Notes under the pieces: generated by a model
Databases searched by the model: none
Seen by the model: only the letters and a program-made list of their open reading frames with translations
Told to the model about the DNA's origin: nothing
Source of the DNA: a virus
Lineage: Duplodnaviria; Heunggongvirae; Uroviricota; Caudoviricetes
Length of the DNA stretch: 9,660 bases
Strand: one strand, 5' to 3'
IMG/VR virus record: IMGVR_UViG_2706794662_000014
Made by a program: the position numbers and the translations under genes
Part shown: piece after piece, positions 236-8,595 of the stretch
Layout of the letters: each line of letters opens with the position of its first letter
How positions within the stretch are numbered: the first letter of the stretch is position 1

Positions 236-1318
236 TCATTTTCTCTGGCTGATCTTTACCGGATAACCATCCCGAAGATCAATTAAGTGCTCCGGTTCAG
301 AAGCAAACCATGCATAAGATCCCCACGCCAATTCTGGTATTGCCTTTTTAAAAGGCAGAGCACTTCTGTCCATAAATGCCGTAAGGAATGCAAGATTTTT
401 CTCGCTGAACCCAGCGTCAATAGCCAAATGAGTGAGAGTAACTTTTCGTTCCCTGTTTATAGGCCCATCTGTCGCAACTACTTCAGTGAAAACTACAAGC
501 ATGTCCGAACCCGTTCGGTCCTCTCCCAAATCAATCAAAATAATATCTGGAAGTGCTTTTGAGGCATCAATATTCAGCCCCAATGCTTTTGCCAATACAT
601 CATCCTGAGCAACAACTTTATTCCCGGATTCAGACAACCAGAGCACAGTTGGATTCTTAAGAAAATTAGGAGCAAAAACTTCGATGACGGCCTTAGCTAT
701 TGTACTTGACGGGCCCGGAGCTAAAGTTCTCTTCTCTCCATTTGGGAAAGTGACGACTACGGCATCAGCAGCAATCACTGCCCCTGATTTCAATAAACGC
801 AACCTAGCAAGAGCGGCTTTGTTCAAATGATTTTCTTGCCAGGAACTTATTGCACTCAGCAGCGAATCTCCTTCAAGCCCGGCATCAAAGAGTGCTGCAA
901 AAGAGCGATTCAAACTGTAACGAGGACGAGAGGATGTGGTGGGTATACCTTTACGCTCAACAATTGCATTGCAAGGTATTAGGCCATTTTTTATAGTTTC
1001 ATCACGTATTGGCTCACGCGTATTTTCCGCATACCATGCATCAGCAGGCCTTATCTTTTGTTTAGAGAAAGTCATCTTTACCCAGCTTTCTCTGGACGCA
1101 TCATCAGTAAGAGCAGCCTGCGAATCTCCCATACTTACAACCTGGCTGGGCCTTATCCATCGCCCCAGCCCCTCAACCGCACCAGCATAAAACATGACAA
1201 AAATTGTTTTTGCAGCTATTTCCCGAATTAAATATCCACGATTCTCAGTCCCTTCAGGGAAAATTAATTGTAATCTTTCCCGGATAACATTCAATGGGGG
1301 AACAACAGGCAGATTCAT
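236..1318 (-). CDS. Putative type II restriction endonuclease, PstI/BsuBI-like
   Basis: 360-codon ORF. ATG (1318-1316) overlaps the methyltransferase TGA stop (ATGA at 1315-1318), GGAG ~9-12 nt upstream. C-terminal segments LPDIILIDL...LVVFTEVVATDGPINRERK and AWGSYAWFASEPEHLI resemble my recollection of PstI-family enzymes (LPDVVVYD...LFLIEAVTSHGPISPKR). Position directly downstream of a methyltransferase. Family assignment is unverified recall. Confidence 0.6.
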   Translation of the reverse strand: MNLPVVPPLNVIRERLQLIFPEGTENRGYLIREIAAKTIFVMFYAGAVEGLGRWIRPSQVVSMGDSQAALTDDASRESWVKMTFSKQKIRPADAWYAENTREPIRDETIKNGLIPCNAIVERKGIPTTSSRPRYSLNRSFAALFDAGLEGDSLLSAISSWQENHLNKAALARLRLLKSGAVIAADAVVVTFPNGEKRTLAPGPSSTIAKAVIEVFAPNFLKNPTVLWLSESGNKVVAQDDVLAKALGLNIDASKALPDIILIDLGEDRTGSDMLVVFTEVVATDGPINRERKVTLTHLAIDAGFSEKNLAFLTAFMDRSALPFKKAIPELAWGSYAWFASEPEHLIDLRDGYPVKISQRK

Positions 1319-3147
1319 GCAATCATCACTCCATAGAAACCAGCGATAGTTCTCTCAATAATCCGTCTGTGGACGCCAGCATCAATTAACGATTGAATCT
1401 CCATCACCTGCTCCAGAGAAGGCAACGGGATTGAATTCAATTCATAGGCCGAAACAGCAACACTTCCGCTTATACACCTGAACGCCCGATCGACAACATG
1501 CGAATTAAGTAGCATATCAATAACATCAGGGCGAACCGCAGAGAACAATCCGTTTGAATATACAATATTAATATGGTTTTCAACTACTACGCCACCAGTT
1601 TCATCTATAAATCCCTGAGGTAAAATTGCCGCTAAAATCCTTCTGTCCTGTTCCTTCGATGTTGTCCGCTGAACAAGCACACATTCAGATTTTGTCACAA
1701 GGAAACCCTGTTGTGGGGTTATATCGATATAGGGAACATGATTTTTTCTGTCTGCACTAAAACGAAAACCAGCTGAAGTTATTGATTCCGCCCAGACTAA
1801 TGGGTAGCTATTTTTTCCTTTCGTCGTACGCAACTGCGACTTAAATCGATTCCAGACTAACTGACCTGTAGAGACTGAGTATCCCAGATCAGCTAAACGC
1901 GTAGACATCTGTTTTAATACATTAAGAAAACAGGCATCATCTTTAACGCGTGGCAAAAGCCACGTTGCTCCACCTTTTTCTATATCAACATTACCTATTT
2001 TCTCAATTTTTGCTTTGTTCAACCCCTTAGGGACAAGTGAGGATACCTGGGCCCGAACTTTATGTTCTCCCGCCTTGAATGCTGTCAACATTGTTTCCTG
2101 GAGAACATCGTCAAAGACCCCATCCCTGTCAGTGACGAAATCAAGGGCATACGGAGTAGTTTTTTCGGTCAAAAGGGTTCGCAGCGCGGTGAAATACTGC
2201 CCACCAAGAAAAGAAGTTGGCGTAAGAAATGCAATAACTCCTGTTTTCTCTTTAACCATGCGAACAGCTAAGTCGGTGAACAATCCATATAGATTTGCAT
2301 GACCAAATAACGAACGAGAATATTTTTCTCTCGTTTTAATATCGAGAGTGACACGTCCGTAAGGCGGATTCCCTACCACAAGATCATAACCAGAAAATTT
2401 ATCTTGCTGAAGCGCATCAGCAACAATAATTGTATCTTCAGGCAATCTACGTTTTACCTTTACACATAGTGGCATTAGTACAGATTCGAGCAATACCAAA
2501 CTCATCCAAGCCGCAAATGGATCGATTTCTATCCCCTTTAAACGACGACTGATTCTCCTCAACATCCATTCAGGGGAAGACCCCTTGTCTTTTTTTAACA
2601 TTCGAATGGCTACTGGTGCCAAAAATGCACCGCCACCACACGCAGGATCAATAACCGATGCATGAGAAAAATCAACACCAGACTTTTCAGCCAGGTCCAA
2701 GAGACGCGCTACCAAAGGTGGGGGGGTATAGTAAGCCCCCAATTCCGAACGGTAAGCGGATGGCAGCATTACCGTATAAATTGACCCAATCAGATATCCA
2801 GCGTCCTCCGCCGGAAATTGAGCAATAAGCTCACCTGTTCGTTCAGCGAGCTCGCGTGCATCACATGGAATGTCTTCTATGTAAACAGTGTGCGGTACTG
2901 CCCTCATTTTAATGCTGCTTTTTTGCTTTTTTGCAAGGGTATCCCAATATGCAGCTACGATGCTGAAGCAGTATGAGCGGGCATGCATCAACCTTGACTG
3001 CCCGGTTTTGTAATTGCCCGCATAACCTTTGGCCATGGCTTTACAAGTTTGATATCTTTCCAGATTAGAAAACTCATTATCTGTAAAAAAATCAAAATGT
3101 TGCACATTCATAATGTAAAATCCTAATGTATCAAACATGCGGGCCAT
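1315..3147 (-). CDS. N6-adenine (amino) DNA methyltransferase, gamma class, with large C-terminal target-recognition region
   Basis: 610-codon ORF. Motif X GAYYTPPPLV, motif I (AdoMet) VIDPACGGGAFL, motif IV VGNPPYG, in gamma-class order. About 330 aa follow motif IV. Start uncertain (ATG at 3147, 3138 or 3111). Confidence 0.85.
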   Translation of the reverse strand: MARMFDTLGFYIMNVQHFDFFTDNEFSNLERYQTCKAMAKGYAGNYKTGQSRLMHARSYCFSIVAAYWDTLAKKQKSSIKMRAVPHTVYIEDIPCDARELAERTGELIAQFPAEDAGYLIGSIYTVMLPSAYRSELGAYYTPPPLVARLLDLAEKSGVDFSHASVIDPACGGGAFLAPVAIRMLKKDKGSSPEWMLRRISRRLKGIEIDPFAAWMSLVLLESVLMPLCVKVKRRLPEDTIIVADALQQDKFSGYDLVVGNPPYGRVTLDIKTREKYSRSLFGHANLYGLFTDLAVRMVKEKTGVIAFLTPTSFLGGQYFTALRTLLTEKTTPYALDFVTDRDGVFDDVLQETMLTAFKAGEHKVRAQVSSLVPKGLNKAKIEKIGNVDIEKGGATWLLPRVKDDACFLNVLKQMSTRLADLGYSVSTGQLVWNRFKSQLRTTKGKNSYPLVWAESITSAGFRFSADRKNHVPYIDITPQQGFLVTKSECVLVQRTTSKEQDRRILAAILPQGFIDETGGVVVENHINIVYSNGLFSAVRPDVIDMLLNSHVVDRAFRCISGSVAVSAYELNSIPLPSLEQVMEIQSLIDAGVHRRIIERTIAGFYGVMIA

Positions 3148-4960: not shown

Positions 4961-5472
4961 TTACTTCACAACTCCCGGAAAGCTGACATTTGAACGCCAG
5001 CTATCCCAGTTAAACGTCACCCACCGACAACCGTTCATGGTCATGCGGTCCATAATCCTCTCACCAAGAAGCGTGCTCATTGCGGCATGATTCAGGTTTG
5101 TTAACATCCCGACACTGCACAGTGATGCTGTCCGGCGATCAATTATCTGGTGCAATACCACCTGCTCGTTTTTCGTCTCCCGCTGAATGCCTATTTCATC
5201 CAGGACCAGCAAATCAACCCCGCAAAGCTCCTGTAAAAATTTTTCACCGGATTTGCCGTTGTCGTAGCTGTCATGCAACACGCTCATGACATCAGACTCG
5301 GTGACGATAATCACGCTGCGCCCCTTCGCCATCAGCCGGTTACCCATCGCCGCTGCAAGGTGATTTTTCCCGGTGCCGGTTTTACCGCTGAACACAAAAT
5401 TCGTGCACCCGGTCATCAGTTCGTCAGCTATGGATTTGGCCTGGCTCAGCGCGTATTTTTGCCCGTCGTTCT
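4961..5472 (-). CDS. DnaC/IstB-like AAA+ helicase loader (phage P-position replication protein), 5' end lost in N gap
   Basis: Walker A GKTGTGKNHLAAA, Walker B LLVLDEIG, sensor-like TNLN. Lies downstream of the O-like gene. ORF-track residues upstream of the N run are artefactual. Confidence 0.8.
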
Positions 5473-5745
5473 GCACCTGATAANNNNNNNNNNNNNNNNN
5501 NNNNNNNNNNNNNNNNNNNNNNNNNNNNNNNNNNNNNNNNNNNNNNNNNNNNNNNNNNNNNNNNNNNNNNNNNNNNNNNNNNNNNNNNNNNNNNNNNNNN
5601 NNNNNNNNNNNNNNNNNNNNNNNNNNNNNNNNNNNNNNNNNNNNNNNNNNNNNNNNNNNNNNNNNNNNNNNNNNNNNNNNNNNNNNNNNNNNNNNNNNNN
5701 NNNNNNNNNNNNNNNNNNNNNNNNNNNNNNNNNNNNNNNNNNNNN
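5473..5745. other. Run of 273 N (assembly gap or masked sequence)
   Basis: Literal n characters in the sequence. It removes the 3' end of the O-like gene and the 5' end of the DnaC-like gene. Confidence 0.99.
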
Positions 5746-6722
5746 AACCAGGGGTTTTCAAAATTCCGGTCCGGCCCAAAAAACGTCGTCGCTCGCTGAA
5801 CAAATTCCGTTCCCGCTTTCCCGGTCGCCGCCAGGTATCTCGCGTAACGCCTCACACCATCCAGCATGGTCTCTGGTGGCACCCCCTCGCGCAATCTGGC
5901 CTTCCAGGCACTGAATGCGGATTTCTTCGGGTTTGCCCCGGCACGCAACGGGTATTCCCGCCAGACCTGTTCGAACACATCCGGATAATCCACTCGTCCC
6001 ACAGGCTGCCCGGTGTTTTCCGGGGCTACCCGATCGGCTTCCCGCTGAATGGCGGAATCGGCTTCAGGCTGCTGCAGTTGGAGTGATTGCTCCGGCCTTG
6101 CGGTCATCACCTGCTGCACAGCGCCCGAATCGGCTTTCAGCGCATACGCTGAATCGGCTTCCGGTGTCGAGCCTGCTGGCTGACCAGGATTGACGGTCTG
6201 AACATCCCCTGCCTGGTTCGTGGCGTTTTTTACGCCATGGACCATAGTGTTTTGATCTTCTTTATCTGTATCTTTATCTGTATCTGTCGTGACTCGTCGT
6301 GACATGTGCGTGACATTTCGTGACGCGCCGTGACAATCGCCATTTTGTTCCCGCTTTCTTTCCCTCTCTCGCTGCGCCCTCTTGCGCTCTGCAGGAGATT
6401 TTGCGGTTTGCGAAATATTGCCGTTGTCCTCTTTAAGCACCTGGCGTTTTTCCCATCCAGTGATTAAATCACCATCAAGTACCCGCCCCTGCATCGTCTG
6501 CAAAATTGAATCAATTACCTCTTCTGTCACGTCGAGCGCACTTGCCAAATCTTCTGTCGTGACATCAATGTGACCTCGCGTGACATTTCGTGACGCGCTC
6601 ACCAGGAGGTGGATATACACTGCCATCACTGTTGCAATTGGCTGCCCTGACACCCTGGCAATTGTTCGCCACTTAGGGTCATTTGGCATGTCATGCCATA
6701 ATCTGAGCCAGGCGTTAGCCAT
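5746..6722 (-). CDS. Phage replication initiation protein, O-like (YdaU-like), 3' end lost in N gap
   Basis: ATG 6722 (MANAWLRLW...) with RBS AGAGGTGA preferred over ORF-track GTG 6728. N-terminal HTH-like region, low-complexity acidic/Q-rich linker, C-terminal FEQVWREYP...KKSAFSAWKARL. Position between cII-position gene and DnaC-like loader; contains iteron arrays. Confidence 0.65.
6259..6334. repeat. Iteron array plus AT-rich 12-bp tandem repeat: candidate replication origin inside the O-like gene
   Basis: CGTGAC cores at 6288, 6298, 6309, 6319, 6329 (spacing 10-11 bp), preceded by TCTTTATCTGTA x2 (6259-6282). Confidence 0.6.
6523..6598. repeat. Second iteron-like cluster, in the N-terminal coding region of the O-like gene
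   Basis: CGTGAC at 6558, 6579, 6589; TGTGAC at 6569; inverted GTCACG at 6526-6531. The 21-mer GCGTGACATTTCGTGACGCGC at 6578-6598 is identical to 6308-6328. Confidence 0.55.
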
Positions 6723-6793
6723 ACTCACCTCTTCTGATACCGAATCTTTTTACTCACGAGTTGCCGGGAGCGATTCGATATGGCTATTGTCAG

Positions 6794-7219
6794 TCAATGT
6801 ACTGCCACAGCATTTCCTGCCGGGCCACCACGGTTCATCTGATTGAAACCGGCGATTGCCACTGCGACAAAATCATCAGCGTCTCTCACCAGTCGTTCAT
6901 GCGTCTCCACCAGTTCCCGAAAATAAGCTGAACTGTGGCTGCGCATTCGAGCCACCAGCGGAGGTGGCATTGCCCTTTCGATCGCAGGTAACAACGCCTG
7001 AATTTTTTCAACAGCGTCAGGGGTGTCTTTATCCAGCCAACGGAAAATCTTTTGGGTGTTGAGATAAAGCGTGTTGTGCTTGCTGTCGTTATGCAGAACC
7101 GGAAACGTCATTCCCAGTTCGAAATAAACCCTGGTTATTTCAGCTGCCGGAACTTTTTCACCGTCCGGATGCGCCCAGGCTTTCATCGCCATGCGGATGT
7201 GTTCATGCTTGATTTTCAT
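6794..7219 (-). CDS. cII-position protein, possibly YdaT-like
   Basis: 141-codon ORF, ATG 7219-7217 overlapping the Cro-like stop (ATGA). Sits between cro-like and O-like genes. YdaT assignment is from synteny and vague recall only. Confidence 0.6.
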   Translation of the reverse strand: MKIKHEHIRMAMKAWAHPDGEKVPAAEITRVYFELGMTFPVLHNDSKHNTLYLNTQKIFRWLDKDTPDAVEKIQALLPAIERAMPPPLVARMRSHSSAYFRELVETHERLVRDADDFVAVAIAGFNQMNRGGPAGNAVAVH

Positions 7220-7479
7220 GAATCAACCCCCGCCGATGGTTGTGTGTTAGCCTGAAACTCAGCAGGCAAGCCGTCAGTTGGGTTGGGGTAGGTTTTACTG
7301 TCAATCTCATGTGGGGTCACCACCCATCCCGTTGCTTCACACCAACGTAATATTTTTTCTCCTGTAAGTTTTGCACGCCCCGTTATAACGTGGCTGACCA
7401 TCCCTTGGGATGCGCCAACAATCTCAGCAAATGAACTCTGGGTTATATGAAAATGATGCAAATATTCTCCAAGATTCAT
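7216..7479 (-). CDS. Cro-like HTH transcriptional regulator
   Basis: ORF track starts at TTG 7506; first ATG at 7479 (MNLGEYLHH...). HTH segment SSFAEIVGASQGMVSHVITGRAKL. Divergent from the repressor gene, downstream of the PR-like promoter. Confidence 0.7.
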   Translation of the reverse strand: MNLGEYLHHFHITQSSFAEIVGASQGMVSHVITGRAKLTGEKILRWCEATGWVVTPHEIDSKTYPNPTDGLPAEFQANTQPSAGVDS

Positions 7480-7513
7480 AATCCGCCCTATGTGATGTGT
7501 TACCAATGCATAA

Positions 7514-7555: not shown

Positions 7556-7583
7556 TCAAAGTGATTAGCAATCTTATTAGAAT
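7555..7583 (+). promoter_or_regulatory. PRM-like promoter for the repressor gene, possibly giving a leaderless transcript
   Basis: -35 TTCAAA (7555-7560), 17-nt spacer, -10 TAGAAT (7578-7583); predicted start ~7590, at the ATG (7591). No clear Shine-Dalgarno before ATG 7591. Confidence 0.4.
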
Positions 7584-7590
7584 TGGATGT

Positions 7591-8091
7591 ATGAAAAGAA
7601 AATCATTGTCAGACACCGACCTCAACGCCGCCAGAAGACTGAAAGAAATCTGGATGGCAAAGAAATCTCAGTTGGGATTGACTCAGGAACGTGCGGCGGA
7701 AATTATGGGGTTTTCAACACAAGGGGCGGTAAGTCACTACCTAAATGGTCAAACCCCACTAAACCTTGAGGCTGTTCTAAAGTTTGCTGGCTTACTGAAA
7801 GTTCCCCCTGAGTCAATCAGGCCAGACATGGTAGATTTGCTGCAAATTGCAAGGATGTATTGTCGAGAACCACAGCAAGATAACATAGTCGCATTACCAG
7901 CAGACACAGAACAAACAGAGGATGAACTACCGTTTGCCGTAGAGCCGATGGAACGAGATTTAATCCATACGTTCAGAGCTTTTCCGAAAGAAGATCAAGA
8001 ACACATGCTTCAGGAGATGAAAGATAAAAAAGAATCAATGGATCGTACGGTTGCGCGGTGGTTAGCTGCACAAAAAGGCCGTCGCGCCTAA
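7591..8091 (+). CDS. Prophage repressor, lambda cI N-terminal-domain-like HTH, no S24/LexA-type cleavage domain; possibly PaaR2-like regulator of the downstream toxin-antitoxin pair
   Basis: ATG 7591 (MKRKSLSDTDLNAARRLKEIW...) preferred over ORF-track GTG 7561. First ~80 aa parallel lambda cI as I recall it ([35 protein letters not shown] vs LSDTDLNAARRLKEIWMAKKSQLGLTQERAAEIMG). Total 166 aa; C-terminal half acidic with no Ser/Lys peptidase motifs. Confidence 0.75.
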   Translation: MKRKSLSDTDLNAARRLKEIWMAKKSQLGLTQERAAEIMGFSTQGAVSHYLNGQTPLNLEAVLKFAGLLKVPPESIRPDMVDLLQIARMYCREPQQDNIVALPADTEQTEDELPFAVEPMERDLIHTFRAFPKEDQEHMLQEMKDKKESMDRTVARWLAAQKGRRA

Positions 8092-8110
8092 ATCAGAGGA
8101 GATATGTAAA

Positions 8111-8305
8111 ATGAGTACAGTCCTTTCCCCAATGGTTTCAGAATTTGAGACAGTTGAGCAAGAAAATAGTTACAACGAATGGCTGCGGGCCAAAGTAGCA
8201 GCAAGCCTCGCGGATCCCCGCCCGGCGATTCCGCATGATGAGGTAATGGCGGAAATGGAACAAATTATTGCCCAAATTGCTGCTGCAACTCACAGAGGTG
8301 AATAA
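8111..8305 (+). CDS. paaA2: Type II antitoxin, PaaA2-like, partner of ParE-family toxin
   Basis: 64-codon ORF, RBS AGAGGAG (8095-8101) 9 nt before ATG, TAA stop overlapping the toxin ATG (TAATG at 8302-8307). Sequence LSPMVSEFETVEQENSYNEWLRAKVAASLADPRPAIPHDEV matches my recollection of PaaA2 from E. coli O157:H7; symbol is from memory. Confidence 0.7.
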   Translation: MSTVLSPMVSEFETVEQENSYNEWLRAKVAASLADPRPAIPHDEVMAEMEQIIAQIAAATHRGE

Positions 8306-8595
8306 TGTTACCCGTTTTATGGCTACCATCTGCTCGTGATGATTTGCGCCAGATCGTAGCCTACATAGCTAAAGAAAATCCCGCGGCAGCACGCAGAATG
8401 AAAATTCGAATTGAAACATCCGTTTTGCCGCTCACAGAGCATCCTTACCTGTATCCTCCAAGCGAGCGAGTTCTTGGTCTTCGTGAAATTGTAACTCATC
8501 CTAACTACATCATCCTTTACCGAGTAACAGCATCAAGCATAGAAGTAGTAAATATTGTGCATTCTCGAAGACAGTATCCAGGCAAAAACAGTTAA
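8305..8595 (+). CDS. parE: ParE/RelE-superfamily toxin (ParE2-like)
   Basis: 96 codons. Typical ParE pattern: MLPVLWLPSARDDLRQIVAYIA...PYLYPPSERVLGLREIVTHPNYIILYRV...IEVVNIVHSRR. Translationally coupled to the upstream antitoxin. Confidence 0.85.
   Translation: MLPVLWLPSARDDLRQIVAYIAKENPAAARRMKIRIETSVLPLTEHPYLYPPSERVLGLREIVTHPNYIILYRVTASSIEVVNIVHSRRQYPGKNS

Follow-up and report, generated by a model that had tools for sequence, protein, structure and literature searches.

Background

In the Bacillus phage SPP1 the origin oriL lies within the gene of its own initiator (gene 38), in the part that encodes the linker between the N- and C-domains, where short direct repeats approximately 11 bp apart are followed by an A-rich 9-bp tandem repeat that encodes NNNDNNENNDNK, a low-complexity peptide of N, D and K. 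The AB boxes of SPP1 bind G38P (gp38), the AT tract is the unwinding element, and a 356-bp oriL fragment suffices for replication in vitro (PMC5737612, PMC6316719); the repeats in the gene 38 linker lie where these two studies place the AB boxes and the unwinding element. The SPP1 initiator lacks an AAA+ domain and is followed by a separate loader gene, and the phage brings its own helicase.

In phage lambda, ori is positioned in the middle of the initiator gene, within the map order cI, cro, cII, initiator and loader, and iterons, an AT-rich tract and an inverted repeat follow one another in the direction of transcription. The lambda tract, which encodes DTKDTITKEKRKD, is 41 bp long with 78% AT and a sense strand that is 73% purine, and in Stx phages extra iterons lengthen the initiator protein (PMC7466680). 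The lambda iterons are four imperfect palindromes of 18 bp, about 20-24 bp apart and each bound by an O dimer, and the loader is P.

Helically phased direct repeats, a winged-helix initiator and an adjacent AT-rich unwinding element also characterize the origins of theta plasmids such as pSC101, R6K, F and RK2. Their iterons are roughly 17-22 bp long, lie outside the rep gene and are usually accompanied by DnaA boxes.

A further locus of this kind of map position is that of the Rac prophage (ydaU-ydaV, oriJ), for which the reference list of PMC11014345 points to reports of oriJ-based plasmids. In the literature that we searched, no origin was found described for the initiator family studied here, for lambdoid replisome organisers with DnaC, or for ydaU/oriJ at the sequence level, and there was no report of binding, unwinding or autonomous replication for the element presented below.

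We report that positions 6214-6594 of a 9.66-kb stretch of prophage DNA (the window, i.e. the whole stretch that was analysed) are likely, on the basis of comparative sequence analysis, to constitute the prophage's origin of theta replication, embedded in its own initiator gene. It would very probably be an origin of a known kind, composed of iterons and an unwinding element, in a family for which we found none described.

Results

Gene context of the window

The window comes from a lambdoid E. coli prophage and covers its early region; the genes of relevance here are the following.

7561-8091, plus strand: cI-like repressor gene (HTH)
7216-7506, minus strand: cro-like gene
6794-7219, minus strand: YdaT/cII-like gene
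5746-6722, minus strand: replication initiator gene (phrog_3729), ATG at 6722, 3' end hidden by a run of N
5484-5745: masked run of 262 N, beneath which the initiator gene ends and the DnaC-like gene begins
4961-5483, minus strand: DnaC-like helicase loader gene, 5' end hidden by the run of N

Beyond the DnaC-like gene, which ends at 4961, there are DUF1627 and DUF977 genes and then a restriction-modification pair (236-3147, minus strand) that consists of an Eco57I/N6-type methyltransferase (1315-3147) and a BsuBI/PstI-type endonuclease (236-1318, minus strand). On the opposite side the cI-like HTH repressor gene is followed by genes for a PaaA2 antitoxin (paaA2, 8111-8305, plus strand; PF21217, E 3e-23) and a ParE toxin (8305-8595, plus strand; PF05016, E 2e-17), and 7561-8595 (plus strand) looks like a three-gene toxin-antitoxin unit of the paaR2-paaA2-parE2 type within the immunity region.

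The initiator gene is near-identical in phages Tritos, Evi and others. Megablast matched it in 2221 of 5426 complete E. coli genomes, 1647 of which carry at least 80% of the gene, and in the plasmid collection the records with the gene were of at least 150 kb or were chromosomes filed as plasmids, with no natural minimal replicon among them. The part coding for the C-domain has 24-nt-spaced repeats at 6033-6068 and 6129-6164 (sense strand GAAGCCGATTC; peptide EADS/KADS), and in this region a variant from an O157:H7 prophage is one 8-residue unit shorter.

Iteron arrays and the adjacent AT-rich tract

Within the initiator gene we distinguish five elements, listed in the direction of transcription.

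6558-6594, minus strand: iteron array I, where four copies in the same orientation follow each other every 10-11 bp within the codons of the N-domain (residues 43-57)
6526-6531, plus strand: single inverted iteron (GTCACG), about 30 bp downstream of array I in the direction of the gene, coding for part of DVTE
6288-6334, minus strand: iteron array II, in which GTCACG (sense strand) recurs five times in direct orientation every 10-11 bp, within the part of the gene that codes for the linker
6244-6287, minus strand: AT-rich tract, purine-rich on the sense strand, candidate DNA unwinding element, encoding TDTDKDTDKEDQNT
6214-6244, no strand assigned: inverted repeat (TGGCGT-aaaaa-ACGCCA core, extended), directly after the AT-rich tract

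On the plus strand the cores of array II read CGTGAC and start at 6288, 6298, 6309, 6319 and 6329 (spacings 10, 11, 10 and 10 bp), and Tandem Repeats Finder places a period-10 array at 6286-6335. Five copies of one hexamer within 50 bp is the maximum for the window; in 300 first-order Markov simulations the same-hexamer maximum per 50 bp was 2 (158 runs), 3 (140 runs) or 4 (2 runs), and never 5. Moreover, all nine GTCACG/CGTGAC sites of the window fall in 6288-6594 (307 bp), with 3.2 expected for the window as a whole. Array I comprises CGTGAC at 6558, 6579 and 6589 together with a tGTGAC copy at 6569/6570 (5/6 matches). The two arrays are approximately 225 bp apart and both contain the 21-mer GCGTGACATTTCGTGACGCGC; array I is adjoined by no AT tract. 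Due to the 10-11 bp period the cores rotate through the three reading frames, and those of array II are translated as CH, SR, VT, SR and VT. No other iteron cluster or comparable feature was detected in the 9.66-kb window, and a search of 5746-7300 for the DnaA box TTATNCACA with at most one mismatch gave none near the arrays and a single one-mismatch site far off, at 7089.

The AT-rich tract (6244-6287; 73% AT and 70% purine on the sense strand) contains the 12-mer TCTTTATCTGTA twice, at 6259-6282, and Tandem Repeats Finder reports it as a perfect repeat of 2.2 copies at 6259-6285. The 12-mer stays in frame and codes for TDKD repeats. Among 40-bp segments, only two in the 9.6 kb are less stable than 6244-6283 (z 2.7), and within the initiator gene none is; the region drops out of the least stable set of the window when stability is measured at 60 bp. 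The inverted repeat that follows (6214-6244) has a predicted fold of -8.7 kcal/mol as single-stranded DNA (z -2.9), and its position, which is like that of the palindrome in lambda ori, makes it a possible third origin element. The locus has what iteron-type theta origins have, i.e. at least three repeats phased with the helical repeat and a flanking candidate unwinding element.

The initial annotation of this DNA had listed five CGTGAC cores at 10-11 bp intervals and two copies of the 12-mer at 6259-6282. The positions of both are confirmed, also by Tandem Repeats Finder, but array I (6558-6594) and the inverted copy at 6526 had been overlooked, and of the two repeats said to stay in frame the 12-mer does so whereas the iterons pass through all three frames.

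With respect to smaller features of the tract, there is a GATC (Dam) site at 6254, and the commonest allele among the relatives has two such sites. GATC is also present in the 13-mers of oriC, of which the site in the tract is reminiscent; the match to the 13-mer consensus, judged by eye only, looked weak. Through a variable repeat of 6/12 nt, the length of the tract ranges from 39 to 93 nt in 86 close relatives, with the window among the shortest alleles (39 nt by the same measure), and the number of 12-mers varies from 2 to about 7 (L013, L025, L023, L018 and other close relatives). Many database proteins of the initiator family are labelled 'partial' and have some 150-220 residues, which may reflect assemblies that break at the 12-mer repeat.

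The initiator protein

The initiator was assigned to phrog_3729, 'replication initiation protein' (E 4e-227). A disordered linker joins its N-domain (approximately residues 1-95) to a C-domain with a relationship to DnaT/DnaD-like loaders. With the whole protein, Pfam gave no family at E <= 0.01. The N-domain aligned end-to-end, with scores below the family cut-offs, with PF09681 (Phage_rep_org_N; E 0.008, 16.6 bits versus a cut-off of 23.3) and TIGR01714 (E 0.013, 15.7 bits versus 49.8), and PHROG families termed 'replisome organizer' matched the initiator at E 1.9e-5 and 3.5e-4. A profile comparison of the initiator with SPP1 gp38 using hhalign was not significant, a PDB sequence search with the family profile returned no match, and a Foldseek search of the PDB with the initiator model gave nothing significant (best E 0.35), the weak matches being a mixture of winged-helix regulators, sigma factors and other folds. 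The protein is no homologue of lambda O; it falls in no Pfam family at this threshold, and its likeness to O is confined to map position.

In the AlphaFold model (mean pLDDT 75), residues 10-95 form a helical N-domain, modelled with confidence, that also contains a short strand element; the N-domain is predicted to be helix-rich and is possibly of the winged-helix type. When the DNA elements are mapped onto the model, array I falls on the end of helix 29-45 and on the loop formed by residues 46-55, while array II and the AT-rich tract encode residues 128-154 (130-160 by another count), which are disordered and lie between the N- and C-domains. In four metagenomic relatives (P0042, P0060, P0073 and P0101) the same N-domain is fused to an HNH nuclease domain, which replaces linker and C-domain; such fusions could be site-specific nucleases that target the iterons.

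Conservation, covariation and selection at the DNA level

Relatives were identified by tblastn with the N-domain, and a further 63 loci came from a scan of one genome per species (Proteobacteria, Acidobacteria and others). The N-domain identity was 74% for Aeromonas phage pAEv1818, 73% for Pseudomonas Detrevirus phages, 47-48% for spring-water phages, 38% for Ralstonia phages and 32-35% for cyanophages. A phased array of an exact hexamer was present in the linker zone of relatives among Aeromonas, Pseudomonas, Ralstonia and environmental phages and of 41 of the 58 evaluable genome loci. From E. coli through Ralstonia phages and Acidobacteria the layout is the same, with array I in the N-domain loop, array II in the linker and then an AT- and purine-rich tract, and the inverted iteron is found at the same place in the Aeromonas and Pseudomonas phages and in many of the genome loci. 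Of the spacings within arrays in 20 related loci, 47 measured 10 bp, five 11 bp and one 9 bp. For the two cyanophage relatives that were scanned for repeats (L008 and L009) the k-mer scan gave no clean array; by eye, L009 has about three GCAACG-like copies.

The core varies with the lineage (GTCACG, GTAACG, CGAACG, GAACGC, ACTACG and GTGACG), and the hexamer of the linker array was GTCACG in 20 loci, GTAACG in 8, CGAACG in 7 and GAACGC in 6. In each of these four groups the N-domain zone is enriched in the very hexamer that makes up the gene's own linker array (on average 3.7, 1.9, 2.6 and 2.0 copies, respectively), with off-diagonal means of at most 0.38 apart from the CGAACG/GAACGC pair, which overlap by five bases and are cross-counted; loci sharing a core are phylogenetically related, so that this covariation represents few independent lineages. 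A concerted change of both arrays is what would be expected of sites bound by one protein.

The use of the core is not dictated by the peptide. In the 20 related loci GTCACG occurs in frames 0, 1 and 2 with 25, 22 and 26 copies, respectively, and GTC-ACG is the spelling of 36 of the 60 Val-Thr pairs in array I, where codon usage elsewhere in the genes would predict 3.6. Array II has five copies in 84 of 86 close relatives, and array I has 3-6 copies in relatives, where changes in number alter the loop of the protein.

With respect to the AT-rich tract, the 40 nt after the array are on average 21 percentage points richer in AT than the gene in 41 distant loci, with an excess of at least 10 points in 34 of them; purines account for 75% of the tract's sense strand, and the median position of the tract is in the top 0.8% of the 40-nt windows of its locus. 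It is always found directly after the iteron array and on the downstream side only. Since a charged linker is A-rich anyway, we examined two-fold codons: K/E/D/N/Q codons end in A or T in 79% of cases in the tract versus 47% elsewhere (Fisher p 2e-29), in 75% versus 29% in GC-biased hosts, and in 9 of 10 versus 45 of 85 in the window itself. This synonymous bias indicates that the AT-richness is selected beyond the need of the peptide and, together with the use of the core in three frames and the codon bias towards it, that selection acts on the DNA. The comparison of these loci shows that repeats and tract are non-random, under selection at the DNA level, and covary with the N-domain across distant phages.

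Stem-loops are common after the array also in relatives, with perfect stems of at least 7 bp within 130 nt in 46% of loci versus 11% of control windows. Hairpins that have a T[GA]NC loop in common but not the sequence of the stem were present in 12 of 62 loci (L105, L108-L111, L114, L117, L124, L128, L132, L135 and L136), at 0.81 per kb versus a background of 0.038 per kb (about 21-fold). They are located just after the AT-rich tract (gene nt 440-560) and have a perfect stem of 5-11 bp, while the 4-nt loop is conserved, which suggests a conserved DNA or RNA structure.

Natural domain swaps

Naturally occurring chimeras separate the parts of this region. A prophage of O157:H7 shares the C-domain and has DnaC-like and YdaT-like proteins that are 95% and 81% identical, respectively, yet its N-domain is another one; its repeats differ as well and are of the sequence AAGGGGCTT, with an 11-bp period, in two arrays about 256 bp apart that are followed by (GAACAG)n. 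Strain SA53-3 has the same N-domain and GTCACG iterons together with a different C-domain and a loader of the lambda-P type, and its array I is extended to six copies, which adds seven residues to the initiator. The breakpoints of the mosaic, as seen with megablast, fall at 6253-6265. From the swaps and the breakpoints it follows that the repeats belong with the N-domain and that the tract is a module junction. On the evidence of the chimeras we also reject the YdaT-like protein and the loader as binders of the repeats.

Comparison with described origins

Among described origins, SPP1 oriL comes closest to the element in anatomy and lambda ori in map position, and the element would work in the manner of these two. 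As in SPP1, the putative origin is situated in the initiator's own gene, in the linker between the N- and C-domains, where short direct repeats and an adjacent AT-rich candidate unwinding element are found within a gene in the position of the replisome organiser; the A-rich repeat tract codes for a low-complexity peptide, and an initiator without an AAA+ domain is followed by a separate loader gene. There are also differences. The locus has a second array in the region coding for the N-domain, whereas a simple k-mer scan found none in gene 38; the DnaC-like loader would have host DnaB as its target, whereas SPP1 supplies its own helicase; the host is Gram-negative; and there is no significant sequence relationship between the initiator and gp38.

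With lambda the locus shares the map order cI, cro, cII-like gene, initiator and loader, a position between the domain-coding parts in the middle of the initiator gene, and the succession of iterons, AT-rich tract directly downstream and inverted repeat. The tracts are similar in size and composition, that of the window having 44 bp, 73% AT and 70% purine, and both encode a linker rich in D, T and K; extra iterons lengthen the protein in SA53-3 as they do in Stx phages. The iterons differ in type, since lambda has inverted repeats of 18-19 bp and the window has direct 6-bp cores with a 10-11 bp period in two arrays; the loader is DnaC-like instead of P, and the initiator is not a member of the O family. 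Compared with the theta plasmids, the cores are short, lie within coding sequence and have no DnaA box near them.

Rac has a corresponding map position, and its second gene, too, is DnaC-like. In the linker-coding part of ydaU (L158, E. coli K-12, gene nt 400-560) we noted degenerate repeats of the GTT-AAC type, spaced roughly 10-13 bp, followed by the same AAAGATACAGATAAAGAT tract as in the window and then by an inverted repeat (C7/G5). The N-domain of YdaU is DUF1376, whereas the initiator of the window has no Pfam family, and the repeats are different. The element in the ydaU linker may mark oriJ.

These comparisons bear on how the locus had been described in the initial annotation, which called the gene O-like, ascribed to the repeats the same layout as lambda ori, proposed a candidate origin and pointed to Rac and other lambdoid prophages for comparison. 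The name O-like holds for the map position and fails for homology to lambda O. The likeness to lambda ori extends to the order of elements, the strand asymmetry and the position in the linker, but does not include palindromic iterons or an O homologue, both of which define the lambda family. Rac agrees in position and in the tract, but not in N-domain or repeats. The candidate origin itself gains support from the conserved layout, the covariation of the cores, their use in three frames, the codon bias towards the core and towards A/T in the tract, the chimeras, and the agreement in order and strand asymmetry with lambda ori and SPP1 oriL.

Discussion

We propose the following route to initiation. 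After transcription from an early promoter of the rightward type, the N-domain of the initiator would bind the GTCACG iterons. With a period of 10-11 bp the copies of an array would be presented on approximately one face of the helix, which would favour a cooperative array of protein that bends or wraps the DNA, and one nucleoprotein complex may bridge arrays I and II over the approximately 225 bp that separate them. The resulting strain, combined with negative supercoiling, would melt the adjacent, strand-asymmetric AT-rich tract at 6244-6287, and the C-domain would then recruit the DnaC-like loader encoded downstream, so that host DnaB would be placed on the melted DNA.

Other explanations of the repeats were considered. 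They might be sites of the initiator that serve mainly in control, by autoregulation, titration/handcuffing or fork arrest, with the origin elsewhere. Bound gp38 has been proposed to stall forks at SPP1 oriR (PMC6316719), and array I, without an adjacent AT tract and as a second array with no obvious unwinding role, would fit a control site; yet array II is flanked by a tract that is selected at the DNA level and recurs in 34 of the 41 loci, the window has no rival iteron cluster, and the order of the elements matches two proven origins (lambda ori and SPP1 oriL), and we therefore regard a function mainly in control as unlikely. It is very improbable that some other protein than the initiator, be it the YdaT/cII-like protein, Cro, CI or a host factor, binds to the GTCACG repeats. 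A promoter-like match does overlap array II on the antisense strand (6310-6337), but the counts in the promoter/terminator scan are those of chance (promoter-like matches: 2 versus 1.7 expected), the repeats track the N-domain and are entirely different in the O157:H7 prophage despite its similar YdaT-like and DnaC-like proteins, and the phages of Pseudomonas, Aeromonas and Ralstonia keep the layout with other neighbouring genes.

The AT-rich tract could alternatively be a recombination linker that joins exchangeable modules (N-domain on the one side, C-domain and loader on the other) and doubles as a flexible charged linker, with no part in unwinding. The mosaic breakpoints within it, its variable repeat number, the predicted disorder of the protein linker and the presence of AAAGATACAGATAAAGAT also in the ydaU linker of Rac, despite the different N-domain there, are in keeping with such a function. 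The synonymous bias towards A and T, however, exceeds what the amino acids need even in GC-rich hosts and fits easy melting, and the tract invariably follows the array on its downstream side. The two functions are compatible rather than exclusive, and we consider it quite unlikely that the tract is a recombination linker and not an unwinding element. Finally, repeats can arise as a by-product, from a low-complexity protein linker or from neutral slippage, and lack any function as DNA, as the in-frame 12-mer (TDKD repeats) with its freely variable copy number might suggest. The frame and codon analyses led us to reject the idea that the repeats simply code for a protein repeat: the iteron core yields unrelated peptides in its three frames and is favoured by codon choice, the copy number of array II is stable, and the same core recurs 225 bp away in a structured domain, where it covaries with the linker array. 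We accordingly attach almost no probability to this explanation, and retain the reading of 6214-6594 as an origin.

A broader proposal, which we advance tentatively and regard as possible but doubtful, is that the locus exemplifies a widespread class of bipartite origins in temperate phages of Gram-negative bacteria. Such origins would have one array in the loop of the DNA-binding domain and a second in the linker, which change in concert, next to a tract selected at the DNA level and, in many members, a hairpin of variable stem and conserved T[GA]NC loop as the third element. We found no description of such a bipartite class in the literature searched, and the bipartite, self-encoded arrangement of iterons may merit one. 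If the class exists as outlined, a change of specificity rewrites a loop of the protein.

Conclusions

The general picture of how phage origins function is unchanged by these findings. A defined origin would help to predict which 'cryptic' prophages still replicate, to read copy-number peaks after induction and to build compatible phage-derived vectors. The comparative set also amounts to a table of N-domain variants with their likely DNA cores (GTCACG, GTAACG, CGAACG, GAACGC and AAGGGGCTT), which is a start for studying how specificity changes in winged-helix-type initiators. Finally, the locus is a clear example of overlapping codes: part of a protein is dictated by a DNA signal that is used in three frames and to which this protein probably binds.
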